Source of the DNA: Squalus acanthias
Lineage: Eukaryota
Reading direction: 5' to 3'
Assembly (NCBI GenBank): GCA_030390025.1
Contig: CM059429.1
Coordinates: 138,508,001 to 138,572,000 of the forward strand
DNA: 64,000 nucleotides
Under the pieces are notes generated by a model. It was given only the letters and a program-made list of their open reading frames with translations, did not search any database and had not been told where the DNA came from. Positions 10,222 to 61,526 of the stretch are shown piece after piece. Position 1 is the stretch's first letter; each line of letters opens with the position of its first letter. The position numbers and the translations under genes are program-made.

Positions 10222-13016
10222 AAATACTTAAACAGAAAGAGAAAAGAGGCAGAGTTTCCTCTTCAGCACTCAGTGAAAAGAGCCTGGCAGGGCCAAAGCT
10301 CTTATTGCAAATCTGGACACAAGCTGCTCATGATTTTCCATCTGTTAATGTTCATGGGTAGAAAATTATGGATAACTTGTGCCCAGATTCGCAATAAACA
10401 CTTCTGCCCTGCCAAGCTCTTAGTGTCAAGCTCTGAAGAGGAAATCCTGCCCTTCAGTGTGCCACTTTGACCCAAAGACTTAAACAGAAAAAGATAGTGC
10501 GCCAAAGTGTTTCAAAGATTTAATCAGAGAGAGGCGGAATGTAAGTATTTGAAATGGCAATTCCAGGTACAGAGAGAAGTGAAACTTGCTGATATCACAC
10601 TCAACTTATGCCAAATAGATGTCGAATCCAGTGAAGCACTGGAGGAAATTGAGGGTCTGAGATGTCAACTAGGACAGAGTGAAAGCAGTCCTGGATTTAT
10701 GGAGAGCGAAAGTAAGCTAACAAAAAAGAAAGCTAGAAACAGTTACTAGATGACTAGAGGACCAATAGGTGCACAGCCAAGGTGTGTGATTTCAGAATAG
10801 TGTCAGCAATCTGAATCAGGAACTGGCTGGCACTAAGTATTAAATACAGTTATTTAATAATCATCACTATCAGAGGGAACAAGTGTAGGAAGAGCTAGAA
10901 ATTGAAAATGCCCATATAGAAGAGGCACTGAAACAAACTGAGAGTGTATCTAATGAAGGGAGAAAGGAGAGTGTCCAATAGAGTTAGTGCACGGCAAATA
11001 TAGCTCGCTGTAGGGAGACCTAGGTTAGTGGAGAGAGATCAGTCCCGTCCAAGAGGGTGAATTTTGATTCTGCTGTACCCACTACTTTCGGTGAACCAGG
11101 ACATTGGAATAAACCAGTACAGAACTGAATTGGTTTATATTGAACCCCCTTCCAAAGGGAAGTTAGCACCTCCGAGAGGTAGGAGTTACAGTGCATACAG
11201 GATAGAGTTTAAGGCTTCTACCAGAAGCAGAAGCTACAATACCAGCAGCACAGAACTAAGGAACTCTATTTCTGTGCATTTAATGGTTTTTAACTTCCAT
11301 CTAGATCATCTAAGCCCTGTGCCTGCAGAAGATCAGGCTTGGTTTCTATCTCTGTGTCTGCTGCGGTTTTAATATGGATAGAAGAGAATCATGGTAATAA
11401 TGGAAGACCTATGGATTGCAGCATGAGTTAGTAAAAAGGAGAATATAAGGTCGGTGAGGCAACTAGGTGAGGCTTTCAAAATTATGTTTTGATAAAGTAC
11501 ACATAAACTGTTCCACTGGCAGGAGGTCTGTAACCAAAGGACACAGATTTAAAATAATTGGCAAAAAAGAGGGGAGATGAGGATAAAAGTTTGAATGCAA
11601 TGAGTTGTTATGATCGAGAATGCATTGCCTGAAAGGGCGGTGGAAGCGGATTAATATTCCCTTTCACAAGGGAATTGGACAAATACTTGAAATCAGTGGA
11701 AGTAGAAATCGGGAGAGATGTAAAACGGACTGCCTACTCACTATCATCCGTTTTACACTGTCGCACAAAGTCAAGATCTATCTCACGATGCGGGAATCGC
11801 TATACCTGGTAAAATTTTAATTTTGATCCACTTAAATTAGGCCATGACCATATTGTGTTGTATTGCCTTTTTGCATATCGCTGGAGTAAGTACGTTCTAT
11901 GCATTTAGATACAGTTAAAGCGGCCCTGACCAGTGTTCTACACCTCCGAGCCAAAACCAGCTTTCAGAAAGCTCAACGGCCCGGAACCTCGCCTGAGCGT
12001 TCTCCCCACTTACACCCGAACCTCCGAGTACTGTTCGTTGCTTATATTTCAGTCCTTTGATCGTAAGGAAATTAGCGCCACTTTACCTTCAATTTGTGCA
12101 GGATCGCAGTTTGTCTCCGGTATTAACAGCGGAGCTCACAGCAAAATATTGGCGAGGCAGCGAAGAGTGAAGATGAGGATGTATGGACGCCTTTTAGCTG
12201 GAGTGTAAGACAGAAATATTTCCGCTGGACAGGTTCGCCGATAAAGCAAATTGTGTTCACAAGTACATCCGTTAATTCAACCAGTTCTGAAGTTGATTTG
12301 TTCTCCTGTATATGGACAAAATCCTTGAGCCGCTATCTTGATGAAATAAAAGATTTGTTTGGTAAAGTAAGAAATGTGTAATATTACAGTAACATCGAGC
12401 AATGATGTGTTTCAATATTAATATAAACCAGAGGAACACATTGAATGGCACAGTAAGATCGGGCCACTCTGCTTCCAGTTTCACTCACTTTAAATGATCT
12501 GCCTTCAGTTGCTCAAAGCCAGGACTGTGCTTACTGTTAGTGTAGATTATTTTAGGATAAATCAGCCTCCCCTTATGCCCCAAGTAACCCTTCCTGCAAC
12601 TTTAACTACAATAATAGTATTAGTAATAGTGTACAAAGAGAACGCAAGTCTTTCAAAGACAGCCCCCGGGATGTACCCATGAGTGAAACATCTCCACTGA
12701 AGAATGGAGGGACACGCCACAGAAAATGCAACTTTGTAACAGAAAGAAATCTGATCATTCACAGACACCCTGATCAACTCTCACAGGTAAAACAAGAGGG
12801 CAGAATTATGGGGAAAGTGACATGTTAACATTTGGGGTGGGAATGGAAGGTGGTGACAGGACGGAGTTCTAAAATCTAACACATTCTCGGCATTTATACA
12901 GTAGAAATAAAATCTTACTCCCACATATACGTGTCAGAATTACTTTGTCCTTTAACCAAGGTCGTCCTTCTGGGGTCAGAGAAGGTGTCATTCCTACACA
13001 GGCTCAGCCACGTGTA

Positions 13017-13614
13017 CTCTTCTGGTTGGGTGTTTAAACAAATGGACTGTAACTAATAAAACTTTAAAAGAACCTTAACAAATTAAATTAAAATTTCATT
13101 AGCCGGGGTGATGATGCACTCCAGTCCCCGCGGCGCCCACCGGTCGCGGAAAGCCTCAAGCGTGCCGGCGGACACCGCGTGCTCCATCTCAAGGGCCACC
13201 CGGGCACGAACATGGCCGCGGAAATGAGGCGGGCAATCGGGCCGAACGACCGCCCGCTGCCTGGACCAGTTAATGGCCACTTTGGCCAGGCCCAGTCCTA
13301 GGAGGAGTCAGCCACGTGTAACTCTTTTTGGTTGGACAGAACCCAAATTAACTGTAAATCAATTAAAACTTTAAATGAAACTTAATAAATCAAATTAAAA
13401 TTTGGTTGCGTGGGGTGACGATGCACTCCAGTCCCCGCGGCGCCCACCGGTCGCGGAAAAACTCAAGCGTGCCGGCGGACACCACGTGCTCCATCTCCAG
13501 GGCCACCCGGGCGCGAACATGGCCGCGGAAATGAGGCAGGCAATCGGGCCGAACGACCGCCCGCTGCCTGGACCAGTTAATGGCCACTTTGGCCAGGCCC
13601 AGTCCTAGGAGGAG
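13017..13614 (-). mobile_element. Two tandem Tx1-clade LINE 3' ends separated and flanked by three copies of TCAGCCACGTGTA
   Basis: Peptide GLAKVAINWSRQRAV..RARVALEMEHAVSAGTLEAFRDRWAP is typical of a Tx1 ORF2 C-terminus. The 13-bp repeat is at 13004-13016, 13308-13320 and 13615-13627. Confidence 0.8.
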
Positions 13615-14559
13615 TCAGCCACGTGTAAAGAGCTGGGGGAGGGCCAGGGCTAATTGCTCCCCCACATGCAGAATGATCTCGGTAATTTGGCACCGGCGGA
13701 CGCTCAGCCGGTGCACTCGGAACGCTGGGTGATTCTTTTTATTCTTTTTTTAAAGGTAGGCCTAACCCATGCTCGGATGGAGCATAAGTCACCTCATGGG
13801 CGAGTCTACGTTCCTATACGGCACACGGAGGGCGCTCTTTATCGGATTTGATGCAAAAAGTAAAAATTCATGTCTTAAAACGGGGACATTTATGAACATT
13901 AACACAGCAAATGAGTCTATAGAGTGAAGAGAGACAGCAGGGATGGTGGCATCAGCTGGCAGGGTCACACACTGGTAAAAGCATTTTATAGTTTAACTGT
14001 AAAAAGACAATGGCTGACAAAAGGATTTCTAAATATAGCGGTACTGTTGTGTAATCTCATTTCGGAGCCTTCTTCCATTGCCATGAACTTCTAGTCCTGG
14101 AATGGTTATTATGCAGCTGAGATAATCCGGCATTGGCCGCTATCTGGAGAAGTTACCCGCCCACCCGCACTCTGTGTATCTGGAGATTGTGTGATCAAAA
14201 CTTCAGATGAAATGTTGTGTATCGAGATACTGTGATACACAAGGAGGTAAGGTCACACAAACCTTTGAAGATCTGAAATAACGTATTTCAATGTACGCAA
14301 TAGTATATTAATCCCCAGCATTAATGTGCCAATTTTGTAATGTTTACTCTCCTCGTGCCAAGATTGTACACGTGGGCAAAGTGTGAACACTTTAACCCTC
14401 AGCTGTTTTCTGAGCACGCAGAGAATATTTTGCAGTGGAGCGTGAATGAACAAGTGAGGTTGTATCCCGCTGTGTCGAAGCGACTAGTGCCTATTCCAGC
14501 AATTTAATCTCAATATAAAACTTCAAAAACGAAGGAAGTCATAAACATCAATGTATGTC

Positions 14560-14760
14560 ATAAAAATAGAAAATGCTGGAAATACTCAGCAGGTCAGGCA
14601 GCATCTGTGGAGAGAGAGACAGAGTTAAGGTTTCAATTGTGACCATTCGTCAGAACTGGAAAATGTTACAGATGTAACAGGTTTTAAGCACCTACAAAGG
14701 CAGAGAAGGGATGAAGGAACAAAAGGGCAGGTCTGTGATCGGGTTGAAGGCAGGAGTGAA
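14560..14760 (-). mobile_element. Penelope-like element 3' fragment with degenerate hammerhead motif
   Basis: Minus strand reads AGTT-CTGACGA-..-GAAACCTT-AACT, followed by the tail CCACAGATGCTGCCTGACCTGCTGAGTATTTCCAGC. Similar tail scraps lie at ~19945-19985 and ~40695-40735. Confidence 0.6.
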
Positions 14761-15264
14761 TACAATAAACAGCTAGATTGACAACCTACCATTTATAATT
14801 TTCTGGCAAATCTTTTTGCACCAGAAACTGTGTGTAAAGATGGAGATGTGTATTTTTGGTTATTCAATAGCTGTAGAGATAAACAGTTGTGAAGATACCT
14901 GAAATCTGAACACCCATTGTGGGACACCTGAGGGCAACTAATAGTTCACAGCAATAGCACCACGTATGATTTGGAAACATTTATGTTTGTAAAATGTCAT
15001 TAGCACCTGTTGGTCCCAATCTGTCGAACCCCTAAAACTTTAGTGCACTGACTTGATGTAAGAGCAGAAAATTTTCGAATCATCTTTTAATGTTACTTTG
15101 CAGTAATGGTTCAGCTTTTTTTTAATAACTATTGTATTGTTTTGGTCTTCATAAGGAGTGCTGTCTATCAAGTACTTAACGTAAGATCATAAGGTAAATA
15201 CTAGTAAGGAAAGCAATTGTGGCCATCCTAGTTCATCCATACAGAAAGGTTCTAAAGTTTCCCC

Positions 15265-15470
15265 GCGTTTCCCACATTACAACAGTGACTACACTTCAAA
15301 AAGTACTTCATTGGCTGTAAAGCGCTTTGAGATGTCCGGTGGTCATGAAAGGCGCTATATAAATGCAAGTCTTTCCTTCTTTCCTTCTTTATTTCTCTTT
15401 CTTTCCCTTTCTTTCTTTTTCTTTCTTTCCCTTTCTTTTTCTCTTTCTATCTCTCTTTCTTTTTCTTTCT
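15265..15470 (+). mobile_element. SacSINE1/Deu-SINE-like 3' end with (CTTT)n-type tail
   Basis: ACATTACAACAGTGACTACACTTCAAAAAGTACTTCATTGGCTGTAAAGCGCTTTG..GAAAGGCGCTATATAAATGCAAGT. Absent from duplication copy 2 (~24495). Confidence 0.75.
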
Positions 15471-16560
15471 ATAATTCCAAGGTTTTCACCTCCCCTACTT
15501 TCTCTCAAAGACCATTCCATGTGTTGATGGCTCTTTGTGTGAAGAAGTACATTTGCCTTTTAGGAGTTTTGTCCTACTCTCACAGGTTAGTTTGAGGTAG
15601 TTTCTCACATCTCTCTTTCCTTACTATTTACTATGTTATAGCCTTCAACATGGTCACCTCTCACACCCTTTCAAGTTTATCATGTCTTTCCTCATCTCTC
15701 AGTTCTTGGACACCAGGGAACAACCTTGTTCTCTGAACTGTCTCCAGGGTTTAAATGCCCCTTGTATCTAGGTGACCAGAATCAGACACAGTACGAAATG
15801 TGGGGTCCGATCAGCACACTGCATTTTGGCTCTATAATTCAGCATTCAATTTGCTTTTCTAATTGCTGCTGATGGTAGGACATATTTAGAATCAAGTCTA
15901 TTAAAACTCCCACATCTCTTTCAATGTCATCCTTATTGTTTTGCAACCATTCATGGGATACTTATGGTATCCATATTTCATGCTATTTACAGTACTTTAC
16001 ACTTGTTGATATTAAATTTCATCTGCCACTGTTCCACCCACTTACGTATTTTGTCCAACTCATTTTGCAGTTCCTGACCTGTCAACACAGATTCAATTGC
16101 CCCTCTAGTTTGGTACCACCTGCAAATCTTACCAATTTCCCCAGCGTTTTTGAATCAAAGTCATTGATGTAAATTAGAATCAGTGGGAAGGGGGAGGGGT
16201 TTATCCCAACACTAGTCCCTGGGGCACAGGTCAGTACTTCTCCCCACCTTGACATAACTCACAGTACCTATTGCTTTCTACCCTTCAACCAATTTCTTAT
16301 CCATTCCCACCATTTACCCTGAATCCCCACTGTTCTAAGCTGGACAGAAAATTTTTATCAAATGCTTTTTAGGCCTACCACCTTGCAATGCTTTCCACAG
16401 TCATCTTGACATATTACTACCTCAAAAAAGGTAAGGACATTGGTCAGTCAGGATCTTCCTCTCCTAACTGTCATTTACTAAATTGTTTTTAGGCAAGAAA
16501 TCCTCAAGTTTGCTCCTTAGAATCAAGTCCATGACTTTACCTGATATTTTTCCTGATTGA
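15470..16560 (-). mobile_element. Old CR1 fragment (also present at ~24520-25500 in the duplicate)
   Basis: Degenerate RT motifs (LIYINDLDS, KF.G.TKL). Confidence 0.7.
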
Positions 16561-16808
16561 AATGCGGCAGAAACAGGTGCTAACGGAGTGGACCAAGAAG
16601 GATAATCTACCATGTTATGACCTCCGAACTTGTATAACCTTGTCACAGAATCTGCAACCTCACTTGGGATTGGCACAGAATTCGCCTTGAAGTACCACAG
16701 AATTCTAAGTTACCTGAGCATAACTGGCTCCTGAAAGGTGCAGCTCAGACATTAACTTTTCTTCTTCAATGCATGTGTAACTATTGGCCCATAATTTGCG
16801 GTCAGCGG

Positions 16809-16965
16809 CAATGTTCCCGTTTAGCTGCATGGCAGTGCAGCTGTCCAACGCTCCAGCGCAGGCCGCTTGCCGGTTCCTGAATGGAAAAACCGCGCGGAAG
16901 TTTGAATGGGCTGCGCAGCCCCTTAAAGGGGCTGCACATCCCCCAAAAAATTACAGGGAACATTG
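16809..16965. mobile_element. 157-bp hAT-type MITE
   Basis: Perfect 10-bp TIR CAATGTTCCC/GGGAACATTG and perfect 8-bp TSD GTCAGCGG (16801-16808, 16966-16973). Confidence 0.85.
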
Positions 16966-17570
16966 GTCAGCGGCAAAGCAAAGGCGCTTGCCTCTGGCCC
17001 TGAAGAAAGCTGCCTACAGAGATCTCACAATCTCTGTGGTGAGATGTTTGCCTTTTTCGACATTCAATTGATTTCAGTGCTCTGTAATGGGAATCCCTAG
17101 TGTGATGCTGCTGTGACATCAACAAGCTGCCTAAGCAGCCAAATACATTACAGAATTCTCACAGACAGGAAACCAAGAAATGAGAAGCTGCTTTTATCCA
17201 GACTTTTAAAAATGTTAAAAAATGTTAATGAAGCAAAGAATGGGACTCTCACAAGGTAGAGCCTGAAATATCATGAACAAACTTTAAAATAAAGTTTTTA
17301 AAAAATTGTAATTTTTATCATAATGGAGAAAGGTGACACTCCACAAATATAAAAATTAGTTTTTCAGGGCCAGAACGTTTGTTTACCAGTCAATACACTG
17401 AAAACCCCAGTTACAGCTATTCCAACAAGGCTTAACATTTAATGGGGTATTTAACAGCGATATTACCATGGAAACGCCCAAGTTTTCATCAGTTTCACTG
17501 ATTACACTGATTGCCAGCTCTGGGGGTATGGAGGATGTTCACAGCACAGCCAGTGTCGGAGCAGTGAATG

Positions 17571-19750
17571 ACAACAACAACAACTTGTATTTTTTTGGCA
17601 CCTTTAACGTAGTAAAACGTCCCAAGGCGCTGCACAGGAGTATTTTAAGACAAAATATTTGACACCGAGCCACATAAGGAGAAATTAGGGCAGGTGACCA
17701 AAAGCTTGGTCAAAGAGGTAGGTTTTAAGGTGCATCTTAAAGGAGGAAAGAGAGGTAGTCACGTGGAGAGGTTTAGGCAGGGAATTCCAGAGCTTAGGGC
17801 CTAGGCAACAGAAGGCACGGCCACCAATGGTTGAGCGATTATAATCAGAGATGTTAAAGAGAGCAGAATTAGAGGAGTGCAGCTATCTCGGGGTGGTTGT
17901 GGGGCTGAAGGAGATTACAGAGATAGGGAGGGGTGAGTCCATTGAGGGATTTGAAAACAAGGATGAGAATTTTGAAATCGAGGCGCTGATTAACCGAGAA
18001 CCAATGTAGGTGAGTGAGCACAGGGGTGATGGGCGAACCAGACTTGGTGCGAGTTAGGACACGGGCAGTTGAGTTTTGGATGACCTCAAGTTTATGTAGG
18101 GTAGAATGTGGGAGGCCAGCCAAGAGTGCGTTGGAATAGTCAAGTCTAGAGGTAACAAAGGCATAGATGAGGGTTTCAGCAGCGGATGAGCTGAGGCAAG
18201 GGAGGAGATGGGTGATGTTATGGTGGTGGAAATAGGCGGTCTTTGTTATGCTGCGGATATGTGGTCAGAAGCTCATTTCAGGGTCAAATTTGACACCAAG
18301 GTTGCGAACAGTGCGGTTCAGCCTCAGACAGATGTTAGGGAGAGGGATGGAGTCAGTGGCTAGGGAACGGAGTTTGTGGTGGGGACCAAAAACAATGGCT
18401 TTGGTCTTCCCAATATTTAATTGGAGAACATTTTTGCTCATCCAGAACTGTATGTCGGACAAGTGGAGGGGTCAAGAGGAGAGGTAGTGAGGTAGAACTG
18501 GGTGTCGTCAGCGTACATGTGGAAACTGACGCTGTGCTTTTGGATGATGTCGCCAAGGGGGCAACATGTAGATGAGAAATAGGAGGGGGCCAAGGATAGA
18601 TCCTTGGGGGACACCAGAGGTAACGATGCAGGAGTAGGAAGAGAAGCCATTGCAGGTGATTCTCTGGCTACAAATAGATAGATAAGAATGGAACCAGGCG
18701 AGTGCAATCCCACCCAGCTGGACGACGGTGGAGAAGGATGGAGTGGTCAACAGTGTCAAAGGCTGCAGACAAGTCAAGAAGGACGAGGAGGGATAGTTTA
18801 CATTTGTCACAGTCACAAAGGATGTCATTTGTGACTTTGATGAGAGCCGTTTCGGTACTGTAGCAAGGGCGGAAACCTGCTTGGAGCGATTCAAACTTGG
18901 AATTGCGGGAAAGATGGGCACGGATTTGGGAGGCGACAACACGTTCAAGGACTTTGGAGAGGAAAGGGAGGTTGGAGATGGGGTGGTAGTTTGCAAAGAT
19001 GGAGGGATCAAGGGTTGATTTTTTGAGTAGAGGGGTGATGAAGGCAGATTTGAGGGAGAGGGGGACAGTACCTGAGGAGAGAGAACCGTTAACAACATCG
19101 GCTAACATGGGAGCCAGAAAAGGAAGTTGGGTGGTCAGCAGTTTGGTGGGAATAGGAGGGAGCAGGAGGTGGGTCTCATGGACAAGATGAGCACAGAGAG
19201 GTCATGAGGGGAGATCGGAGAGAAACTGGAGAAAGATGTGAGTTCAGGGCTAGGGCAGGGGGAAACCTTAGAGGAAGTTTGGCCTGGTGGGCTAGGGGAA
19301 GGAAGGGAAGTGGCAGAGGCAGAGGCAGCTGAACGGATGGTCTTAATCTTAGAGACAAAGAAGTCCATGAGCTCCTCACACTTGTTATCAGAGGTGAGGG
19401 TGGAGGAGACAGAAGAGAGGAGTTTAAGAAGATGGTTTGCAGTGAAGAATAGAAGCCGGGGTTTATCTTTGCATTCCTGAATGATTCTGGAATAGTGAGC
19501 AATTTTGGCAGATGAGAGCAGGACCTGATAATGCTTTATGTGGTCCAGCCAAATCTGGCGGTGAATGGCTAAACCAGTTGTCCGCCATATCTGTTCAAGT
19601 CTGCGTCCCTTGGACTTAAGGGAGTGAAGATGAGAGCCGCGACAGGAGGAACGGCCAGGATGAGAGGGTAGTTGTTTTAGTAGGGTCCAGGGCATCAAAG
19701 GTGGTGGTGAGGGTGTGGTCGAGCAGATCGGTAGCTGCAGAAATGTCATG
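17571..19750 (-). mobile_element. L2 LINE, 5'-truncated and frameshifted
   Basis: RT motifs LLDLSAAFDTVDH, GVPQGSILGPLLFLIY, HMYADDTQ; (GTT)n 3' tail; GTGAATG at both ends (17564-17570, 19751-19757). Confidence 0.9.
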
Positions 19751-20001
19751 GTGAATGGAGCTGATTTCAATTTAAGGATTTCCATGTTAGGATGCGGGTG
19801 CGCTACATCCTGAAGTTGCGGTCAGTTTCAGAGGGGTAATGACGGCAAATGCTGTTGGTTCGCTGTCACTACCCACCGTAAATTCCGGGCCATCCTAATT
19901 TCAGCAAAAGCAAATACCTCGGCATCTGGAAATCTGAAATAAACACAGAAAATGCTGGAAACAGCAGGTCAGGCTGTAGAGAGAATGCTGCCGGACGATT
20001 G

Positions 20002-20022
20002 TTTCAGTTTCGTTTCTCTTTC
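20002..20022 (-). promoter_or_regulatory. Multimeric ISRE/IRF-E (copy 1)
   Basis: TTTCAGTTTCGTTTCTCTTTC reads GAAA-GA-GAAA-C-GAAA-CT-GAAA on the minus strand, four GAAA cores in IRF spacing. Confidence 0.7.
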
Positions 20023-20379
20023 TGAAAGTGCGCAGTTTCTAATTCACTCACTTGGGTCAAGATGCATTGGTAAGAAAGAATACATTTCTCATATGTATTT
20101 GATCACTGGCATTTTAAACTCATATGGAGTAAATTCTGCGCCTGAAGTACAAGATGGACTCACTCATGTATATTTATGTGATTAATTACACAAACGTTAT
20201 GATAAATCCCACGATTCGATGTCCAGTCAGTAAAATTTAAATATTCAAGTAATTCTGACTTTTAAAATATCTATTTTATGATGAATGCATTAAAACCTGC
20301 CGATTCCTACAGTGAAATAGTGTATCGGGCCTTAAAGCGGGATTGTAGGTCAGTGTGGTTTAATGCGAGGTCGTGTTCA

Positions 20380-20443
20380 CAACCTGTCGAGCTTCCCTCT
20401 GCCTCGCTACAAGTGACGGAGCTGAAAGGCGGCGTTTAATAGG
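20380..20443 (+). promoter_or_regulatory. Candidate MHC class I-type SXY module (copy 1)
   Basis: CAACCT - 16 nt - CCTCGCTACAAG - TGACG - 20 nt - ATAGG. Order and spacing match HLA-A/B promoters as I recall them (CAACCT-N16-CCWGGATACTCR-TGACG-N20-ATTGG). The Y box has one mismatch. Confidence 0.6.
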
Positions 20444-20464
20444 CGCTTCAACTCAGCTCTGAGC

Positions 20465-20563
20465 AAACTCCGCAGTGAGCTCCCAGATTCTGCGTTGCTG
20501 TTTGTGCCGAGCGGAGGATTGTCCAGTGTTCCGCACCGAAACTGAACGACATTGATCAGTAAT
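20465..20563 (+). other. Candidate non-coding first exon 1a of the Ig-superfamily gene (start approximate)
   Basis: Follows the SXY-like module and ends at the donor-like AAT|GTACGT (GT at 20564-20565). Confidence 0.45.
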
Positions 20564-21019
20564 GTACGTTTGTATTCAATGTTCTTGTAACTATAATTCT
20601 AGTTGAATACAAATGTGATCTGTTTATTGATATGAAACAGTCCGTCAAGCAGACTAACTTTATTTGATTGTGAGTGGTGACGTTATGCATGTAGAACTAT
20701 ATATACAGTTAATGCGAATTAATAATATATTAAGAAAGTATTTAATTTAATTGTAAATATAACAAACATGTTAAAGGCATTTTAGAACCTCCTGAAGAAT
20801 GCTTCATGGCAGTGGAAGGCCTTATATAGAAATTACAGCCTGGAAACAGGCCCTTCGGCCCAAGCAATCCATGTTGGTGTTTCTGTCCCACAGGAGCAGT
20901 GGCCTTAATCCCTTGTGCCGGCTGTTTCTGTCGATACTGTTCCATCCCTTAATAACTTTAACCACCTCTATCAAATCCCAGTATAATCTTCACTTCTGAT
21001 GAGAACAGCCTCAATTTTA

Positions 21020-22020
21020 TGTAGTTACATAGTATTTACAGCGCAGAAACAAGCCATTCGGCCCAACTAGTCAATGCAAGTGTTTATGCTCCACACGAGC
21101 CTCCTCTCTCACTACTTCATCTAACCCCATCAACATATCTTTCTATTCCTTTCTCCCTCAGGCTTCCCCTTATATTCATCTTTGTTGTTCGCCTCAACTT
21201 GCTTGTAGTAGCGAGTTCCACATTCTAACCACTCTCTGGGTAAAGAATTATCTCCTGAATTCTTTATTGGATTTATTAGTGACTGTCTTATATTTATGGC
21301 CCCTAGTTCTGGTTGTCCCCGCAAGTGGAAACATCTTCTCTACGTCTGCCCTATCAACCCTTTTCATAATCTTAAAGACCTCTATCAGCAGGTAACATAA
21401 AAGGAAACCCCTCAATTTCCTCTTTCCTTGAGAAAAGAGCCCCAATCTGTTCAGTTTTTCCTGATAATTATAACCTCTCAGTTTTTTCAACTTTCTCCAG
21501 TGCCTCTATATACTTTTTGTAATAAGGAGACCAGAACTGTGCACAGTACTCCGTGTGGTCTAACCAAGGTTCTATATAAATTTAACATAACTTCTTTACT
21601 TTTCAATTCTATCCCTCTAGAAATAAACCCTCGTGTTTGGTTTGATTTTTTATGGCCTATTGACCTGCGTCACAACTTTTAGTGATTTAAGTATTTGTAC
21701 TCCCAGATCCCTTTGCTCCACTACCCCATTTAGATTCTGATTTCTACATAATATGTGTCCTCCTTATTTTTCTTACCAATATGTAATACCTCACACTTAA
21801 CTATGTTGAAATTCATTTGGCGATTATATGCCTATTCTGTACATTCATTAATGTCTTCCTGTAATTTGTTGCAGTCCTCCTATCCCTCCCAATTTAGAAA
21901 TTGTGTTTTTGATTCCAAAGTCTAAATCGTTAAAATAAATTGTGAACAACAGTGGTCCCAGCACTGATCCCACTTCCCACCACCTGCCACTCTGAATAGC
22001 TATCCTTTACCCTTACTCTC
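21020..22020 (-). mobile_element. CR1 LINE 3' fragment
   Basis: NYQEKLNRLGLFS..LIEVFKIMK..RTRGHKYK peptide and CR1 3' UTR. Confidence 0.8.
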
Positions 22021-22024
22021 TGCT

Positions 22025-22120
22025 AGGGTGTGGGACTAATCTGTACAGCTCTTTCGAAGAGCCGGCACAGGCACGACGGGCTGAATGGCCCCCTTCTGTG
22101 CTGTAACATTATATGATTCT
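22025..22120 (+). mobile_element. CR1 3' tail at the junction between the duplicated units
   Basis: GAAGAGCCGGCACAGGCACGACGGGCTGAATGGCC..TGTGCTGTAAC..TATGATTCT, the same tail type as 28270-28325. Confidence 0.7.
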
Positions 22121-22283
22121 AAGTATAAAAGGCACTGAAACAGGCTGAGAGTGTATCTAATGAAGGTAGGAAGAAGAAAGGAGCATATTCAATTGAGTTA
22201 GTGCATGGAAAATATAGCTTCCTGTAGGGAGACCTAGATTAGTGGAGAGAGTTCAGTCCTGTCCAAGAGGGATGAATTTTAAT

Positions 22284-23400
22284 CACATAAGAATTAGGAG
22301 CAGGAGTAGGCTATATGGCCTTTTGAACCTGCTCCGCCATTCAATAAGATCATGGCTGATCTTCGACCTCAACTCCACTTTCCCGCCCGCTCCCCATATC
22401 CCTTGATTCCCCAAGAGTCCAAAAATCCATCTATCTCAGCCTTGAATATACTCAATGACTCAGCATCCACAGCCCTTTGGGGTAGAGAATTCCAAAGATT
22501 CACAACCCTCCAGGTGAAGAAATTCTTCCTCATCTCAGTCATAAATGGCCGACCCCTATTCTGAGACTATGTCCCCTAGTTCTAGACTCTCCAGCCAGGG
22601 GAAACAACCTCTCAGCATCCACCCTGTCAATTCCCCTCAGAATCCTGTATGTTTCAATGAGACCACCTCTCATTCTTCTAAACTCCAGAGAGTATAGGCT
22701 CAATCTCTCCTCATAGGACAACCCTTTCATCCCAGGAATCAATGTAGTGAACCTTCGTTGCACCGCCTCTAAGGCATGTATGTCCTTTCCCAAATAAGGA
22801 GATCAAAACTGTGCACAATACTCTAGATGTGGTCTCACCAAAGCCCTGTACAATTGTAGTAAGACTTCCTTACTCTTGTACTCCAACCCCCTTGCAATAA
22901 AGGCCAACATGCCATTTGCCTTCCTAGTTGCTTGCTGTACCTGCATGCTAACTTTCTGTGTACGAGGACACCTAAATCTCTCTGAACACCAACATTTAAT
23001 AGTTTCTCACCATTTAAAAAATAGTCTGTTTTTCTATTCTTCCTACCAAAGTGGATAACCTCACATTTCCCCACATTATACTGCATCTGCCACCTTACTG
23101 CCCACTCACTTAACCTGTCTATATCCCTTTGCAGGCTCTTTGTGTCCTCACTGCTTACTTTCCCACCTAATTTTGTATTGTCAGCAAACTTGGATATATT
23201 GCACTCGGTCCCTTCATCTAAGTCATTTATATAGATTGTAAATAGGCCCAAGCACTGATCCATGCGGCACCCCATTAGTTACAGCCTGCTAACCGAAAAA
23301 TGACCCATTTATTTCTACTCTCTGTTTTCTGCCCATTAACCAATCCTCTATCCAAGCTAGTATATTACCCCCAACCCCATGAGCCCTTATCTTGTGTAGT
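22284..23400 (-). mobile_element. CR1 LINE inserted after the duplication (copy 2 only)
   Basis: FTIYINDLDEG..SKFADNTKLGG and YSLEFRRMRG peptides. It interrupts sequence that is contiguous in copy 1 near 11065. Confidence 0.85.
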
Positions 23401-25645
23401 AATTCTGTTGAACCCATTACTTTCAGTGAGCTGGGACATTGGAATAAACCAGTACAGAACTGAAGAGGTTTATATTGAACCCCCTTCCAAAGGGAAGTTA
23501 GTACCTCCTAGAGGTAGGAGTTACAGTACCTACAGGATAGAGTTTAAGGGTGCTGGCTTCTACCAGAAGCAGAAGCTACAATACCAGCAGCACAGAACTA
23601 AGGAACTCTATTTCTGTGCATTTAATGGTTTTTAACTTCCATCTAGAGCATCTAAGCCTTGTGCCTGCAGAGATCAGGCTTGGTTTCTATCTCTGTGTCT
23701 GCTGCGGTTTTAATATGGATATAAGAGAATCATGGTAATAATGGAAGACCTATGGATTGCAGCATGAGTTAGTAAAAAGGAGAATATAGGGTCGGTGAGG
23801 CAACTAGGTGAGGATTTCAAAATTATGATCGAGAAAATAAGGAGAAACTGTTGCCACTGGCAGGAGGGTCGGCAACCAGAGGACACAGATTTAAGATAAT
23901 TGGCAAAAAAAAGGGGCGACGAGAAGACATTTTTGTATGCAATGAGTTTTTATGATCCAGAATGCACTGCCTGTAAGGGTGGTGAAAGCAGATTAAATAG
24001 TAACTTTTAAAGGGAATTGGACATATACCTGAAGTCAGTGGAAATAAAAACCAGGAGAGATGTAAAACAGGCTGTAAAACAAATTATTTTGTTTTTTAAC
24101 CAAGGTCCTTCTGGGGTCAGATACCTGAAATCTGAACACCCATTGTGGGACACCTGAGAGCAACTAATAGTCCATAGCAACAGCACCATGTGTGCTTTTG
24201 GAAACATTTGTGTTTGTATTATGTCATTAGCACCTGTTGCACCCCATCTATTGAATCCCTAAAACTTTAGTACACTGACTTGATGTAAGAGCAGAAAATG
24301 GAAAATGTTTTTCAGAATCATCTTTTAATGTTGCTTTTCTGTAATGGTTCAGCTTTTTTATAACTATTGTATTTGGTCTTCATAAGGAGTGCTGTCTATC
24401 GGGAACTTAACGTAAAATCATTAGGTAAATACTAGTAAGGAAAGCAATTGTGGCCATCCTAGTTCATCCATACAGAAAGCTTTTAAAGTTTCCCCATTGC
24501 AGCATTCAATTTTTTCTTTAAATAATTCCAAAGTTTTCACCTCCCCTACTTTCTCTCAAAGACTATTCCATGTGTTGATGGCTCTTTGTGTGAAGAAGTA
24601 CATTTGCCTTTTAGGAGTTTGATTGCACCCTCTTTTCCTACTCTCACAGGTTAGTTTGCGGTAATTACTCACATCTATCTTTTCTTACTATTTACTATGT
24701 TATAGCCTTCAGCAAGGTCAATTCTCAGACTCTTTCAAGGTCAACAAGCCTTAGTTTATCAAGTCGTTTCTCATCTCTCAGTCCTTGAACACCAGAGAAC
24801 AACTTTGTTCTCTGAACTGTCTCCAGGGTTTTAAGGCCCCTTATATCTAAGTGACCAGGTCCAGACACAGTATGAAATATGGGGTCTGTTGAGAACACTA
24901 CATTTTGGCTCTTTCATTCAGCATTCAATTTGCTTTGCTGATTGCTGCTTAAGATTGGGAGTTCAACCCACTTACATATTTTGTCCAACTCATTTTGTAG
25001 TTCCCAACCCGTCCAAACAGATTCAATTGCCCCTCCTAGTTTGGTACCACCTGCAAATCTTACCAATTTCCCCAGCGTTTTTGAATCCAAGTCATTGATG
25101 TAAATTAGAATCAGTGGGAAGAGGGGTTCCCAAAACTCGTCCCTGGGGTACTGGTCAGTACTTCTCGCCACCTTGACATAACTCAGAACCTACTGTTCCC
25201 TACCCTTCAACCGGTTTCTTATCCATTGCCACCATTTACCCTTAATCCCCACTGTTCTAAGCTAAACAGAAGAATTTTGTCCAATGCTTTTTAGACATCT
25301 AGTCCTACCACTCTGGAATGATTTCCACTATCCTCTTGATATATTACTACCCCCAAAAAGTTAAGGACATTAGTCAGTCAGGATCTTCCTCTTTTGAATC
25401 TGTGCTGATTGCCGTTTACTATTTGTTACCGTGCAAGAAATCCTCAAGTTTACTCCTTTAGAATCAATTCCATTATTTTATCGGATGTTTTTCCTGATTG
25501 GAATGCGGGAGAAACAAGTGCTGACGGGGTGGACCAATGAGGAAAATTTAGCATGTTAAGAGCCACGAAGTGAATTTCAGGTACGGGGGTGGGGCGGATC
25601 GTGGGCCCGAATGCTGCCTGCCCATTGCAGTATTTTCTATTCAAA

Positions 25646-25666
25646 TTTCAGTTTCGTTTCTCTTTC
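25646..25666 (-). promoter_or_regulatory. Multimeric ISRE/IRF-E (copy 2)
   Basis: Identical to 20002-20022. Confidence 0.7.
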
Positions 25667-26015
25667 TGAAAGTGCGCAGTTTCTAATTCACTCACTTGGG
25701 TCAAGATGCATTGGTAAGAAAGAATAAATTTCTCATATGTATTTGACCACAGGCATATTAAACTCATATGGAGTAAATTCTGCGCCTGAAGTACAATATG
25801 GACTCACTCATGTATATTTATGTGATTAATTACACAAACATTATGATAAATTCGCTGTCCTGTCAGTAAAATTTAAATATTCAAGTAATTCTGACTTTTA
25901 AAATATCTATTTTATGATGAATGCATTCAATCCTGCCGATTCCTACAGTGAAATAGTGTATCGGGCCTTAAAGCGGGATTGTAGGTCAGTGTGGTTTAAT
26001 GCGAGGTCGTGTTCA

Positions 26016-26079
26016 CAACCTGTCGAGCTTCCCTCTGCCTCGCTACAAGTGACGGAGCTGAAAGGCGGCGTTTAATAGG
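26016..26079 (+). promoter_or_regulatory. Candidate MHC class I-type SXY module (copy 2)
   Basis: Identical to 20380-20443. Confidence 0.6.
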
Positions 26080-26099
26080 CGCTTCAACTCAGCTCTGAG

Positions 26100-26184
26100 C
26101 AAACTCCGCAGTGAGCTCCCAGCTTGTGTGTTGCTGTTTGTGCCGAGCGGAGGATTGTCCAGTGTTCCGAGATTGATCAGTAAT
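26100..26184 (+). other. Candidate non-coding first exon 1b (start approximate)
   Basis: Duplicate of exon 1a with a short internal deletion; donor-like AAT|GTACGT (GT at 26185-26186). Confidence 0.45.
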
Positions 26185-26694
26185 GTACGTTTGTATTCAA
26201 TGTTTTTCAGTAATTCTAGTTGAATACAAATGTGATCTGTTTATTGATATGAAACAGTCCGTCAAGCAGAATAACTTTATTTGATTGTGCGTGGTGACGT
26301 TATGCATATAGAACTATCTATATAGTTAATGCGAATTAATATATTTATTAAGAAACTATTTAATTGTGAATAGAAGAAACATGTTGAAGGCAATTTAGAA
26401 CCTCCCGAAGAATGCGTCATGGCAGTGGAAGGCCTTATATAGGATTTAAAGCCTGGGAACAGGCCCTTCGGCCCAAGCAATCCATGTTGGTGTTTCTGCC
26501 CCACAGGCCCAGTGGTCTTAATCCCTTGTGCAGTCTGTTTCTGCCGATTCTGTTCCATCCCTTAATAACTTTAAGACCCAAAATCAAATCCCAGTGTAAT
26601 AAACCCTTTCATAATCTTCAAGACCTCTTATCAGACCACCCCTCACCTTTTTTTCTAGAGAAAAGAGCCCCAGCCTGTTCAATCTTTCCTGATA

Positions 26695-28325: not shown

Positions 28326-28660
28326 TTACTTTTCTTTATGAAAATGTACCACTTCACATTTGTTGACACTGAATTCCATCTGCCACTATTTTGCACATTG
28401 CACCATCTTTTCAGTATGTTCTTGTAGCTTCCTTTGGTCCTCAGAAATATTTTCTGTGCCTCCTATTTTAATATCATCTGCAAATTTGGACAACACTCCC
28501 TCCAGTTCTATATCCGAATCATTGATGTACAAGTGAGCATAAGCGGTGGCATAACTGAACCCTGTGGGGCATCATTACCCACTTCCAACCATTTGGAAAC
28601 TGCCCTTAACTCTTACTCTCAGTTTCCTCCCTTCTAACCAGTCATTCATTCTTTTTCAGG

Positions 28661-28709
28661 ATGCCGTCACTGCGCTGTCTGGTACTTTGCTTGCTGTTTA
28701 TTCATGGTG
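28661..28709 (+). CDS. B7/butyrophilin-like Ig gene, signal-peptide exon (MPSLRCLVLCLLFIHG, phase 1)
   Basis: Acceptor TTCTTTTTCAG before 28660, donor G|GTAAGT at 28710, hydrophobic leader; phase matches the IgV exon. Confidence 0.8.
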
Positions 28710-31954: not shown

Positions 31955-32296
31955 AAACGTTAACTGTTTCCTCTGATCAGACCACTGCTGCAGAGATTGG
32001 CCAACCTGTCACCCTCAAGTGTACATTTGACAGCGTTCGCGACAGTAATCCTACAGTGGTCTGGGAGAAGAAAGGTGTGGAGGGAACCGTGCACAAGTAC
32101 AAGGGAAATGAGCATGACTTCAGCAAACAGCATGTCAACTACACGGGAAGAACTGTAGTTGATGGAAACTCAATCAACAAAGGAGACGCAGCCCTTACAC
32201 TGAAGAATGTTAACATCTGGGATGAAGGAACTTACAAGTGCAGTGTCAGCGCTAGCAATGGATACGATGCAGCATCTGTGAATCTGAAGGTTTGGG
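31955..32296 (+). CDS. B7/butyrophilin-like Ig gene, IgV-set exon
   Basis: 342 nt, phase 1-1, CAG|...G|GTATGT. Peptide ETLTVSS..VTLKCTF..VVWEK..VHKY..YTGRT..GDAALTLKNVNIWDEGTYKCSV..VNLKVW has the canonical C-W-DxGxYxC V-set signature and the B7/BTN GDAALxL motif. Confidence 0.92.
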
Positions 32297-34595: not shown

Positions 34596-35368
34596 TGAAG
34601 TGGCGAGGATCGCACCTGTCAAGGTGCTTGCCTAATTTTTGGTCCATTTAAATTAATAGAAGGAAAATCACAATGGCTCCCTCACAGGTGTGCCATTCTC
34701 CCTACCTGATTTTCTTTTCCGCACTGCGTCCAGGCAAATTTAATACCTCAGGAACAGGAAAATCTGCCAAATGGTCCTTTAAAATCAACATAAAAAGAAA
34801 AAGTGACATTTTATGGATTTATTCAAATTAGAAACGTCATGAAAAAGAAACACAAGAAAACAATGGCCGGAATTTTCATGCTGCCGTGCATGCGGGATTG
34901 GAGGCGGGTCAGGAGTAAAATTTGCAATAAATGGGAGCATGTCGGGACCCTGACATCATCCCGCCTCCTCGCGACTTGATCTCAGGCGTGTTTGCTGGCG
35001 TGGCACGGACCAGAACGGCAGAGGCGGGCAACCTAATTTAACTCATTAATACCTTGTTGTCAGACCCTTAACTGTTTTTAACCAGACCTTTTAAATTTAA
35101 CTGCATGACCAGGGGAATCGCGCAGCTTGTGAACCATGTCTGTCAACCTGAGGAGGACGTTCAGTGACCATTGATCGAGGTCATTACTGCAGAGCATGGA
35201 AAGCACAATAAATACTGCCACTGCTTACTTGCCTAAAGGAAAGGCTCTTGCTGAGTGTATTTTGAGCACAGATTTTGCAAGTCTTTTCTGCAAATTCAGA
35301 AGCCACTCTCACCGCATTACTCCTAACTATCACTGATCTCTACTTGACCTGCCATCTATTACATCAGC

Positions 35369-36575
35369 ATGGGTGCCGTTTGTACTGTCTCACCTTGGTC
35401 CTCAGAATCGGACCAGGATGAGCTCCAACACCAGCAGCAGCAACCGCAACAGCACCAACAACCTTCTCCTCAATGACCTGATGCTCCACAGGACAGAGGG
35501 TATCAGCACAGGGCTGCACCGCGCAGGAGGCGATATCCCCAATACAGGGTATACCGGCAGAGGATGAGCTTCCTCAACATGACTGAGCAGCAGTGCCAAA
35601 GGAGGCTCAGGCTATCGTGCCAGGTCATTGCAGGCATTTGCAGGTTGCTGGAACAAGACTTGCAGCCCAAAGGACCTGGTAGACGCACCTTACCAGTGGT
35701 TGACAAAGTCACCACCGCCCTCAACTCCTTTGCCTCGGGCTTCTTCCAGGGATCTGCAGCAGACATTTGTGGCATGTCGCAGTCGGCCGCCCACAGATGC
35801 TTCACCCAGGTCACCGATGCCATGTTTGACAAGTCAGCCAATTATATCAACTTTGCCACTGATGAAGCCAGAGTTACTGAGCGGGCGCTCGGCTTTGTGG
35901 CTCTGGCTGGCTTCCCACGGGTGCAGGGCGTCATCGACTGCACACGTGGCCATCAGGGCACCCCATCATCACCCAGGAGTGTTTGTAAACCGCAAGGGCT
36001 TCCACTCCGTCAATGTGCAGCTGGTCTGCAACCAAAGGTAGATTCTCATGCATGTGTGCGCCAGATTCCCTAGCAACTGTCTTGACTCTTTCGTCTTGCG
36101 CCAGGCCATCCTCCCTCAGCTCTTCACTCCACAAAATACACTTGCTGGCTGCTTGGAGATGAGGGCTATCCACTGAAGACGTGGCTCATGACACCCTTGA
36201 GGAGGCCAAGTACTGAGGCCGAGAATAAATATAATGAAAGCCACATGTCCACCCGATGTGTCATAGAGCAGACAATAGGCATGCTGAAAATGCGCTTCAG
36301 ATGCCTTGACAGATCTGGAGGAGCCCTTCAGTACACACCAGCCAGGGTCTCCAGAATCGTCGTTGTCTGCTGTGCGCTGCACAACATAGCGCAGCAGCGA
36401 GGATTAGCGCTGCATGAGGAGCAAGGCGCAGAGCGCACAGCCTCTTCGGAGGAGGAGAAAGAAGAGGAGCCTCAGCTGGAAGATGAGGAGGAGCAGGAGG
36501 AACCTGAGGTCCAGATGCCAGCAGCACCCGAGCACGTTGCTGCCGGGAGGCCAGGAATGGCCTCATTGTGGCCAG
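35369..36575 (+). pseudogene. Harbinger DDE transposase (HARBI1-like), with stop and frameshifts
   Basis: [48 protein letters not shown] and CCALHN motifs are split over frames. Confidence 0.9.
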
Positions 36576-36818
36576 ATTTACTTAAGTTCCTGCATTACAC
36601 CTATATGGCTGCCACATGCTGCGCCAGGTTCTCCACCCGTCCCCCCCGACCACAACAATACCATAAAGCATCCCTACAATGACCAAGCCATTCCTTTCAC
36701 ACTGACCCCCATTGCTGGAGGTAACGTTATGTCTCACCATTCACTGCAACTCACTAAACCACTTCTAAAGTAGGAGACATAAATGGGCATGACCTGAAAG
36801 TGGTGAAAATAAATAGTT

Positions 36819-38310
36819 TTATAAGTGACGGAACTTTAACAAAAACACTTCTTTAAACATCCATGTGCTTACCCTTGCGCTCTTCATAGATAGCATGTGC
36901 TCATGTGAGTGGCGCATTAGCTGCTCCACGCAGGTGACCATCCTTTTCATGGAAGAGCCTACAGTCGCCATCGCCTGCGACACGATGATGCTCATGTTGG
37001 AGATGGACTCCTCCATTCGCTGCACATTTTCAGATATTGCAGCCGCAAAACCTGTCAGAGCCTCCTGCACTTTTTCCTGCACCTCCAGGATCGCCCTCTT
37101 TCTCGATGGCCCCCGAGGCTGAGCGTCTGTATGCTGCTGAGCAGAGCTGGGAGCGTCCTGCGCCCTGCAGCAAGGAGTCTCTACTGCTCTCCATCTCCAT
37201 CATCTCCTCTTGCTCACTTGTGACTTGAGACACCAGGTGACAACACTACTCTGTCGCGTAGGACCCACCAAGTGCACGTATCTGCGCTGGTGCTGGGTGC
37301 GCTTGGTCTGGTGACGGTGCACCCTCAGAGGCTGGAGGCTCCTCTGAGGAGTTGTCTTCCTCTTCCACCTGGACAGTGGGGGGGGGGTGGTGGGTGGTAG
37401 GGGAGAGTAAAGAGATGATTTAGATATGATTTATTAAGAATGGCTAACGATACCATTATGCACATGAACATTCTCTGGCTGCTGATATCAGTCCCCATAT
37501 GAGTGACTGCTGTATGCCATGTGGCTGTATGAGATGTAATTCTGTCACCAGGTTGCTGCAAGGTCCCCCTCTCTCCATCTCCCACTGCCAGCTGCTCTGC
37601 AACTCCTGAGACCTCCAGGGTGGCCTCCTCTGCTGCTGTCAAAGTGGCGAAGGATGGAGGGCCACCTCTGGTTCTCTCTCTCTCTCTCCCTGTTATTGTG
37701 CGCGCGTTTCTCCTACAAGGATGGAAAGAAGAAAAGTTTGAGTGAGAGTGATGGCATGAGTGTAAGGAGTGTGTGGGTTGCATCTTTAGAAGGAGACTAT
37801 GATGGAGTGGGGTGCCAATGCCAAAGTGCCTCCTTGTGTGTTGTTAGTTGGTATGATTGCATTAGGATGAGGGTGAGTGTGAGGGGTGGTTAGTCAGAGG
37901 GGGATGTGAGTATGTAGATAGAGAGAGAGGGATGGGTGGACATGCAAAGGTATGTTGGTGTGAGGAATGATGCGCAGGAGTAGGATTGGGAAGGCAGAGT
38001 GATGGGGATGCGGTGACAGGCACAGCAGGATGAAGTTGAGTGTGGATTTGCACTCACCTTTCCTGATCTCATGAGATCACTGAAGCGCTTCCGGCACTGC
38101 ACCCAGGTCCTCCTCACCACATCTCTGCTGTTCACCTCCTCTGCAATTTGGAGTCAGGCTCTTTTTGTCTCTTGGGGAGGTCTCTTGCGTCCATCAGCAG
38201 GAAAGAGGACCTCCCTGTGTGCTCTGACTCCCTCCACAAGAATATGTAGTGAGTCATCAGAAAACCCTGGGTGCAGCCCTCTGTCTCTGTGAAGCCATCT
38301 CTGCAAGGCT
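36819..38310 (-). pseudogene. Harbinger Myb/SANT-like DNA-binding protein gene (spliced)
   Basis: NSRDVVRRTWVQCRKRFSDLMRSGK, RERERTRGGPP and a C-terminal coiled-coil-like segment. Confidence 0.8.
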
Positions 38311-38888: not shown

Positions 38889-39170
38889 GTGCTGCTGATA
38901 TCTATATCTCATGGAAGTCTGATGAAACTGGTGCTGAAGTGCTGTCTTGCCACTCTTCAGGGTGGTACCCAGCCCCAACGATTAACTGGAGTGACGCATC
39001 TGGTAACGATTTGAACAAGGATTGTAAAGCAACCCTGACGGCAGACAACAATGGATTATTGAATGTGTCATATGACCTAAAACAACAGCATAACTCGAAG
39101 AATCAGTATATCTGCTCCATGAAGCATAAGTGGATGGCAGAGCCTAAGCGTATTCGAGTAGCATTCTCAG
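38889..39170 (+). CDS. B7/butyrophilin-like Ig gene, IgC exon
   Basis: 282 nt, phase 1-1, TTTGCAAAAG|...G|GTGAGT. VLSCHSSGWYPAPTINWSD..GLLNVSYDL..YICSMKH is the C-x-S-x-GWYP-x-P-x-I-x-W signature of B7/BTN C domains. Confidence 0.92.
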
Positions 39171-40481: not shown

Positions 40482-40534
40482 ATGGGGGAACCATGATTCG
40501 TTTAGATGATGGAAAAAAATTGTCAGATTTATAA
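40482..40534 (+). CDS. B7/butyrophilin-like Ig gene, predicted terminal exon (DGGTMIRLDDGKKLSDL*)
   Basis: Strong acceptor TTTATATTTCCTTTATTTTCAG, phase-1 compatible, stop TAA at 40532-40534, AATAAA at 40847-40852. Confidence 0.65.
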
Positions 40535-55316: not shown

Positions 55317-55354
55317 TGACCTGACGAAGGAGCAGCCGCTCCGAAAGCTTGTGA
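55317..55354 (+). ncRNA. Second hammerhead motif in the inverted pLTR copy
   Basis: AC-CUGACGA-A-GGAGC-AGCC-GCUCC-GAAA-GCU-U-GUGA; stem I is shortened by the inversion junction. Confidence 0.7.
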
Positions 55355-61524: not shown

Positions 61525-61526
61525 AT

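Follow-up and report, generated by a model that had tools for sequence, protein, structure and literature searches.

Two copies of a predicted promoter with an identical 191-bp core upstream of a B7-H4-like gene in Squalus acanthias

Introduction

Between tandem paralogues that evolve in concert, lying close together and in direct orientation, divergence is low in a patchwork of short tracts, which is the typical product of interlocus gene conversion. The same patchwork is present in a 64,000-nucleotide stretch of Squalus acanthias DNA (assembly GCA_030390025.1, contig CM059429.1, positions 138,508,001 to 138,572,000, forward strand; hereafter the window, numbered from its first letter), with the difference that the unit is a predicted promoter and non-coding first exon serving one coding region, rather than two whole genes. 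The predicted product resembles VTCN1 (B7-H4), a B7-family protein, and the two promoter copies share a central core of 191 bp without a single difference. Our preferred reading, to which we give a probability of about 0.55, is that the proximal promoter of this B7-H4-like gene was duplicated and that its cores are identical through gene conversion together with purifying selection. Duplication and gene conversion are themselves ordinary processes of a known kind.

According to an old idea, the B7, butyrophilin and major histocompatibility complex (MHC) genes derive from one immune complex. Mammalian B7-H4 is anchored in the membrane. The shark gene has in common with VTCN1/B7-H4 a signal peptide followed by variable-type (IgV) and constant-type (IgC) immunoglobulin domains, and its elasmobranch homologues are annotated as VTCN1 or VTCN1-like; the shark model differs in lacking a C-terminal anchor and in having an IgC domain nearest to those of butyrophilins, and it is called VTCN1-like only. 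In promoters of MHC class I genes, a module of S, X1-X2 and Y boxes (SXY) is bound by RFX, CREB/ATF, NF-Y and NLRC5 (PMC4374748). The shark core shares with the mouse H2-K module the AACCTG core of the S box, a 15-nt S-X spacer, the TGACG core of X2 and a distance of 20 nt from X2 to the Y position (PMC4374748). As in HLA class I genes (PMC3987962), the module lies less than 200 bp from the predicted start codon and has an ISRE (interferon-stimulated response element) upstream. Unlike MHC class I, the Y position reads ATAGG, the ISRE lies about 540 bp rather than about 165 bp from the start codon, and the gene belongs to the B7 family. Mouse Btn2a2 and human BTN3A1-3 are also IgV-IgC genes with an MHC-type module, and the Y box of BTN3A is atypical too, being replaced by a reversed CCAAT 13 bp from X that is required for activity (PMC7753138); this element is absent from the shark core, and the shark IgV is nearer to B7-H4 than to butyrophilins. 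HLA-G has a partial SXY module in which S and X1 are intact, as in the shark core, but its X2 and Y are divergent and CIITA does not activate it (PMC3987962), whereas in the shark X2 is intact and only Y is off. A search of titles and abstract openings, in which few subscription journals are represented, returned no account of this promoter, of any shark B7 gene having an SXY module, or of an anchorless shark B7-H4, which is weak evidence of novelty, and the excerpt of PMC10062451 contains nothing on the promoter.

Identical cores within a tandem duplication

The duplication and its cores are as follows.

10917..21466, + strand: copy A, comprising the upstream region, promoter, exon 1a and start of intron 1 (self-BLAST, block alignments)
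22124..26694, + strand: copy B, which adjoins the coding exons (self-BLAST, block alignments)
20296..20486, + strand: identical core of copy A, a putative CpG-rich proximal promoter, exact match to copy B
25932..26122, + strand: identical core of copy B, exact match to copy A

The two cores, 5.6 kb apart, match base for base, as the earlier note had reported, and the match is maximal, being extendable on neither side; GC content is 53% and 12 CpGs are included. Differences between the copies occur within 1-4 bases of the core on both sides. At the background rate of divergence, 21 differences would be expected in 191 bp (probability of none, 1.6e-10). A run of 191 bp was reached in 0 of 20,000 permutations of all 3,162 aligned sites and in 3 of 20,000 when only the last block (959 sites) was permuted. 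Part of the statistical strength of the core derives from a wider region of low divergence.

Self-BLAST and block alignments resolve the duplication into six colinear direct blocks, spanning 10917-20987 in copy A and 22124-26600 in copy B, and a short seventh paralogous block of 87% identity that ends at 21466 (A) and 26694 (B). The six blocks differ, in order, at 11.8, 8.9, 7.4, 10.0, 12.6 and 5.2% of aligned sites, and with the two largest low-divergence regions left out the background divergence is 241 of 2,166 sites (11.1%, Jukes-Cantor 0.12). About 7 kb of copy A have no counterpart in copy B. Among the copy-specific insertions, B has a CR1 piece (about 22284-23401) and A has 3.37 kb (16629-20001). 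The duplicated stretch probably took in the upstream region together with the predicted first exon, but none of the coding exons after it.

Three other accounts of the repeat were tried and rejected. A duplicated unit reaching exon 2 fails at 21466, beyond which CR1 remnants are 66% identical to the intron of B, no better than unrelated CR1 copies; a whole-gene duplication would need a second exon 2 or immunoglobulin exon between the promoters, and none is there; and a long terminal repeat (LTR) pair was dismissed because the homology runs on colinearly for kilobases upstream.

A two-state hidden Markov model (HMM) of divergence, with rates of 3.5% and 13.8% (log-likelihood -958 against -987), marks four low-divergence tracts, at 11114-11471, 15188-15583, 16096-16187 and 20003-20688. 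Three of them are of particular concern here.

20003..20688 (partner 25647-26305), + strand: low-divergence tract of about 690 bp containing the core (HMM; 22 events in 662 sites)
11114..11471 (partner 23449-23812), no strand assigned: second low-divergence tract (HMM; 12 events in 359 sites)
16096..16187 (partner 25026-25118), no strand assigned: low-divergence tract, situated in a degenerate CR1 reverse-transcriptase remnant that both copies contain (tblastn 15761-16462; HMM; scan test)

The 191 bp had been taken as the unit of identity, and this is not borne out, the unit being the 690-bp tract. The AT-rich spacer and the intron flanking the core are below background too (16 of 338 sites, P=2.8e-5). 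The other paired blocks had been described as diverged; this holds as regards the 11.1% background and the copy-specific insertions, but the block offered as an example contains the 359-site tract with only 12 events. Low divergence is thus not peculiar to the core, an identical run of 93 bp being found in that same supposedly diverged block. In the tract at 11114-11471, the best 250 sites hold 5 events, a value reached in 0 of 10,000 permutations, and there is no open reading frame common to both copies at 11114-11471 and 23449-23812. For the tract in the CR1 remnant, with 2 events over 93 sites, P is 0.002 when its own block is tested and a modest 0.045 over blocks 0, 2, 3 and 4.

The observed/expected (o/e) CpG ratio of the core is 0.88, against 0.44 for the window. 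CpG islands are defined by a length of at least 200 bp, a GC content of at least 50% and a CpG o/e of at least 0.6, and both 20296-20563 (268 bp, GC 0.52, o/e 0.99) and 25932-26184 (GC 0.52, o/e 0.88) qualify in sequence, a ratio similar to theirs being reached by many young repeats in the window. Both copies retain 22 of 25 CpGs in 20002-20700, including all 12 of those in the core, compared with 10 of 42 elsewhere (P=5e-7). Such retention is consistent with an island that is unmethylated in the germ line, but conversion would yield the same pattern.

Gene structure and predicted product

The gene model comprises two alternative first exons, a further candidate start and four coding exons.

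20465..20563, + strand: predicted exon 1a, start at about 20465-20510 (donor located; ends in the AT of a split start codon)
26101..26184, + strand: predicted exon 1b, with the same donor, 15 bp shorter and with 4 substitutions relative to 1a downstream of the core (alignment)
20062..20069 (partner 25706-25713), + strand: in-frame ATG with a donor, an alternative to the above, just downstream of the ISRE and part of an identical run of 81 bp (reading frame taken directly from the letters)
28660..28709, + strand: exon 2, single-copy, encoding the signal peptide, its first base being the G of the split start codon (spliced model)
31955..32296, + strand: exon 3, IgV (Pfam V-set; shark VTCN1-like matches; best PDB match B7-H4 4gos)
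38889..39170, + strand: exon 4, IgC (Pfam PF22705; PDB butyrophilin matches)
40482..40534, + strand: coding part of exon 5, a short hydrophilic tail and stop (tblastn of shark homologues)

In both copies, the donor after 20563 or 26184 is preceded by AT, and exon 2 has one base, a G, before its ATG. Splicing either donor to exons 2-5 gives a frame that stays open for 242 codons and begins M-M, and no upstream ATG occurs in 20444-20561. The spliced model is 53-64% identical to all eight shark homologues tested, without an N-terminal gap. Among 16 elasmobranch homologues, 10 start with M-M, 2 have Met at the first position only and 4 have the single exon-2 Met; in 12 of the 16, therefore, a Met stands one residue ahead of the exon-2 Met position, and it is the sole Met in 2 of these. 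The comparison supports a start codon split across intron 1, which is not universal among the homologues. A supposed difference of one extra Met between Amblyraja isoforms proved wrong, both starting with one Met.

Exon 2 and the immunoglobulin exons are single-copy in the window. The proposal that twin first exons feed one coding region thus has the donors, the open 242-codon model and the single-copy exon 2 in its favour, and the support is inferential. The short deletion that had been suggested in exon 1b as a tag for telling the copies apart corresponds to a real length difference of 15 bp (20532-20546 in A, absent in B), which may be a loss in B or a gain in A.

A search with the IgV exon retrieved 7 longer proteins among 241 candidates, 6 of them shark proteins named VTCN1 or VTCN1-like (best Pristiophorus, 75%), and the alignment search gathered 13 elasmobranch-type members and 2 distant perch proteins. 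Among solved structures, the IgV domain is closest to B7-H4 (4gos, E 4.6e-18), followed by B7-H3, PD-L1 and BTN2A1, and the IgC domain matches butyrophilins first. After the signal peptide, the maximum 19-residue hydropathy of the model is 0.47, and in the last 45 residues of all 16 homologues it is at most 0.84, leaving no hydrophobic C-terminal anchor. Because neither the model nor any of the 16 homologues has a hydrophobic C-terminal tail, the native product is predicted to be a secreted IgV-IgC B7-H4-like protein of 242 residues. The core, with exon 1, is very probably the promoter of this VTCN1/B7-H4-like gene.

Promoter motifs

Two groups of motifs were found in the duplicated promoter; like the identity of the gene, the ISRE and the S-X-X2 boxes go beyond the earlier note.

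20002..20022, - strand: triple ISRE-like GAAA repeat of copy A (motif scan; starts at the first base of the homology block)
25646..25666, - strand: triple ISRE-like GAAA repeat of copy B (motif scan)
20380..20443, + strand: copy A module with an S-like box at 20380-20386, an X1-X2-like box at 20402-20418 and a mismatched Y position at 20439-20443 (against published modules)
26016..26079, + strand: the same S, X1-X2 and Y-position module in copy B (comparison with published modules)

Both GAAA repeats have the GAAA-N1-2-GAAA form of an ISRE, and the triple repeat agrees with the ISRE as defined for class I genes of salmon (PMC11695323), the promoters of which contain an ISRE, a W/S element and site alpha (PMC1971071). 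In the window the triple repeat occurs only in these two places, and in 0 of 100 shuffles; the simple ISRE 10-mer has 20 matches, so that the triple form alone is distinctive. A second identical run, of 81 bp, spans the ISRE, an ATG and a donor. In copy A, the triple repeat overlaps a TTCAGAA word at 20020-20026 that resembles a gamma-activated sequence (GAS). Remnants of a single short repeat family (25611-25645 and 19939-19984), oppositely oriented, stand immediately before the ISRE in the two copies.

The reference modules for the second group were the H2-K and H2-Eb primers (PMC4374748) and the mouse Btn2a2 promoter (PMC7753138). The class I-type S box core AACCTG stands at 20381-20386 and 26017-26022 and is identical in the H2-K primer. 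The spacing from S to X is 15 nt, within the required 15-16 bp, as in the H2-K and H2-Eb primers and in BTN3A. The X box matches at all 7 positions that are invariant among the three published modules, falls within the observed set at 15 of 17 positions and equals mouse Btn2a2 at 13 of 16. The Y position, at the H2-K distance, is ATAGG and not ATTGG, and it overlaps a TATA-like word at 20435-20442. In shuffles, X1-X2 is significant only jointly with S (3 of 50,000). The S-X2 pattern occurs in the window only in the two copies, against an expected 0.02, and in 17 of 50,000 shuffles of the core; with relaxed spacing the latter value rises to 68 of 50,000, and two more sites in the window then match. 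The full pattern with three mismatches was found in 0 of 100 shuffles of the window.

The S box ends 176 bp and the Y position 119 bp ahead of the start codon, both distances being measured to the predicted start codon only. Transcription would start at about 20465 if the TATA-like word is used, or at about 20510 if the Y position is placed near -68, as in pig class I (PMC11266202). Overall, the boxes of the core are SXY-like and do not make it a full SXY member. The MHC-like combination of S-X-X2 with a triple ISRE is a statistically supported lead that is post hoc and fails at the Y box, and control of the promoter by RFX and NLRC5 is a tentative proposal, for which we see somewhat less than even odds.

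Gene conversion, selection and alternative explanations

In the preferred reading, a partial tandem duplication would have produced one gene with two promoters and two first exons. From either promoter, a short first exon ending in AT would be spliced to the G of exon 2, giving the same secreted protein of 242 residues. Local conversion would have repeatedly copied patches between the copies, and a conversion tract of about 690 bp would have made the promoter regions alike again. The 191 bp at its centre would since have stayed unchanged, either through selection on the boxes or through a later conversion nested within the tract, and selection would also have kept the donor. The promoter may be interferon-responsive through the ISRE, and X1-X2 might recruit RFX and CREB/ATF as in MHC class I and butyrophilin promoters, probably without normal binding of NF-Y.

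The earlier note had left open whether purifying selection, local gene conversion or both are responsible. Identity between the paralogues rises above that of the flanks in four tracts, non-functional sequence included, and patchy conversion is suggested because one of these tracts sits in a dead CR1 fragment; a contribution of conversion to the identity of the copies is graded as quite probable. Selection probably acts as well, because the longest tract and the longest run both lie on the promoter, homology in the two copies sets in at the ISRE's first base, and neither donor is disrupted. The cores are thus likely kept alike by patchy conversion and purifying selection together. That both promoter copies are active is slightly favoured.

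Several results count against parts of this picture. Within 20002-20700, a region itself low in divergence, an identical run of 191 bp has P=0.011, and P=0.026 at a uniform rate of 3.3%. The tract at 11114-11471 could be a conserved (distal) enhancer rather than a conversion tract. The core contains no CCAAT or ATTGG, and so has neither the canonical Y box nor a reversed CCAAT at 13 bp, and BTN3A needs a Y box of correct sequence, orientation and distance for NLRC5 activity (PMC7753138); HLA-G is a warning that a partial module may be inactive. By itself, the X consensus does not exceed chance in the window (9 matches, 14.6 expected), the Btn2a2 X motif also matches one unrelated site, and the module tests are post hoc. 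As for exon 1, the single-Met start of 4 of the 16 homologues includes that of Heptranchias, and 17 donor-like sites in 7200-28660 are preceded by AT, so the chosen donor is not unique. A search for likeness of exon 1 across species was negative. Its query was a profile back-translated from the N-terminal extension (39 residues) of P0017, a Chiloscyllium gene prediction; the local score of 16.8 was equalled in 136 of 2,000 shuffles, and the best score in the window lay within the range of 30 shuffles.

The alternative that survives best, an unlikely one in our judgement, is conversion alone. Only copy B would work, and copy A, silent or dispensable, would look intact through recent overwriting by B. 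Low-divergence tracts in sequence without likely function fit this, as does the state of copy A, which lies 8.1 kb from exon 2 and in which 3.37 kb of repeat-derived sequence have taken the place of the homology immediately upstream of the ISRE. However, the homology of A begins exactly at the first base of the triple ISRE, which suggests that the insertion was tolerated only outside the motif; at four of the five length differences in the last block it is B that is the shorter copy; and the promoter has both the longest tract and the longest run.

Less likely still is selection alone, in which strong purifying selection would have acted on both promoters ever since they were duplicated, helped by a low mutation rate in an unmethylated CpG island and with no conversion. 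The identical run spans the S, X and Y-position boxes, the second run of 81 bp spans the ISRE, and all 12 CpGs of the core are kept, all as selection would have it. At least 79-86% of the 191 sites would nevertheless have to be invariant, spacers included, a uniform 50% constraint yielding such a run with P=0.0005. Non-CpG divergence elsewhere is 7-12%, so that the unmethylated state cannot explain the identity, and the tract in the dead CR1 fragment would be left unexplained. Of the mechanisms named in the earlier note, conversion therefore gains support and selection alone is strained.

An improbable arrangement has the main first exon running from the ISRE to the donor after 20069 or 25713, the core being an intronic enhancer or a second, alternative promoter. 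The 81-bp identical run, with its ISRE, ATG and strong-looking donor in frame with exon 2, speaks for it, the sole ATTGG of 19950-20700 is located there, and some homologues have two transcript accessions per protein. Such an exon would, on the other hand, add three residues before the exon-2 Met, where the named homologues add one or none (the long extension of P0017 aside), and the region is CpG-poor relative to the core.

An artefact of assembly or polishing, whether by collapse or cross-correction of the cores or by false joining of a haplotype as a duplication, is very improbable. Perfect identity over nearly the length of a short read would be expected of it, but the copies differ by 11% and by several multi-kb copy-specific insertions, far more than alleles do; the differences 1-4 bases from the core on both sides let reads of ordinary length anchor uniquely; and divergence declines gradually towards the core.

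Several short inverted repeats visible in the core might suggest a gene for a structured non-coding RNA, or else part of a mobile element. This reading is largely refuted and hardly credible, given folding z-scores of -0.75 and -0.39 (both strands no better than shuffles), 0 Rfam matches at the gathering score in the whole window, 4 sub-threshold Rfam matches at E up to 10 over 19900-21000 of which none in the core is below E=1, and no third copy of the core in the window. A search for tRNA genes found none, and an origin from a vector or plasmid was rejected, there being no match.

Returning to the duplicated promoter, probably kept alike by conversion and selection, the two versions have the same core, differ in upstream context and can be told apart by a tag of 15 bp in exon 1. 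They amount to a natural experiment on how distance and far-upstream sequence tune one promoter, and the locus bears on whether conversion preserves redundant regulatory copies. The most far-reaching version, a secreted shark B7-H4-like gene that belongs to the MHC class I regulon through an ancient S-X1-X2 module of the RFX/CREB/NLRC5 type and a triple ISRE, with two working promoter copies held identical by conversion and a split start codon, is doubtful. If it were true, enhanceosome control of a B7-family gene would predate the split of cartilaginous and bony vertebrates, and the regulation shared by mammalian MHC and butyrophilin genes would extend, through an S-X-X2 module at a shark B7 gene, to cartilaginous fish. 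Such boxes would also bear on the common origin of B7, butyrophilin and MHC genes.

Substitution pattern, repeats and neighbouring sequence

The last block of the duplication (20002-20987 against 25646-26600) is rich in transversions, with 16 transitions and 34 transversions; the other five blocks have 121 transitions and 88 transversions. The excess is partly due to a cluster at an alignment edge near 20962-20969. Two segments are found in copy A only. The segment 11733-12937, unique in the window, has a CpG o/e of 1.0 over 11736-12300 and donor-like sites on both strands; it may be a further promoter or first exon that either B has lost or A has acquired. The other, 13039-13628, consists of a GC- and CpG-rich unit of 307 bp in 1.9 tandem copies.

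Several transposable elements were identified. Just upstream of the ISRE of copy A, 16786-19892 is an apparent miniature inverted-repeat element with a nested fragment of a long interspersed nuclear element (LINE); its ends, judged by eye, resemble those of 34861-38572, a DNA transposon of intron 3 that has inverted ends and a fragmented DDE_Tnp_4 frame and that we take to be Harbinger-like. At 49591-51222 (- strand) lies a CR1-type LINE with an open reverse-transcriptase frame of 544 codons, hence a relatively young copy. An LTR retroelement at 52554-62002 (- strand), inserted in a CR1 copy, has terminal repeats that are about 98% identical and frames for a zinc knuckle, protease, reverse transcriptase and integrase. 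One of its terminal repeats is interrupted by a 2.4-kb element (52950-55402) without a Pfam match, presumably Penelope-like.

Upstream of the duplication, an exon at 4037-4148 (+ strand) encodes a hydrophobic C-terminus of 31 residues and a stop. It matches the C-terminus of an uncharacterised Mustelus protein of 171 residues with an IgV domain and a transmembrane segment (XP_078088791.1; E 1.2e-4, 72%). This protein and the VTCN1-like protein of Mustelus have accessions seven numbers apart and contigs of equal length. This suggests that a gene of this IgV-transmembrane type is a conserved upstream neighbour of the VTCN1-like gene, shared with Mustelus.

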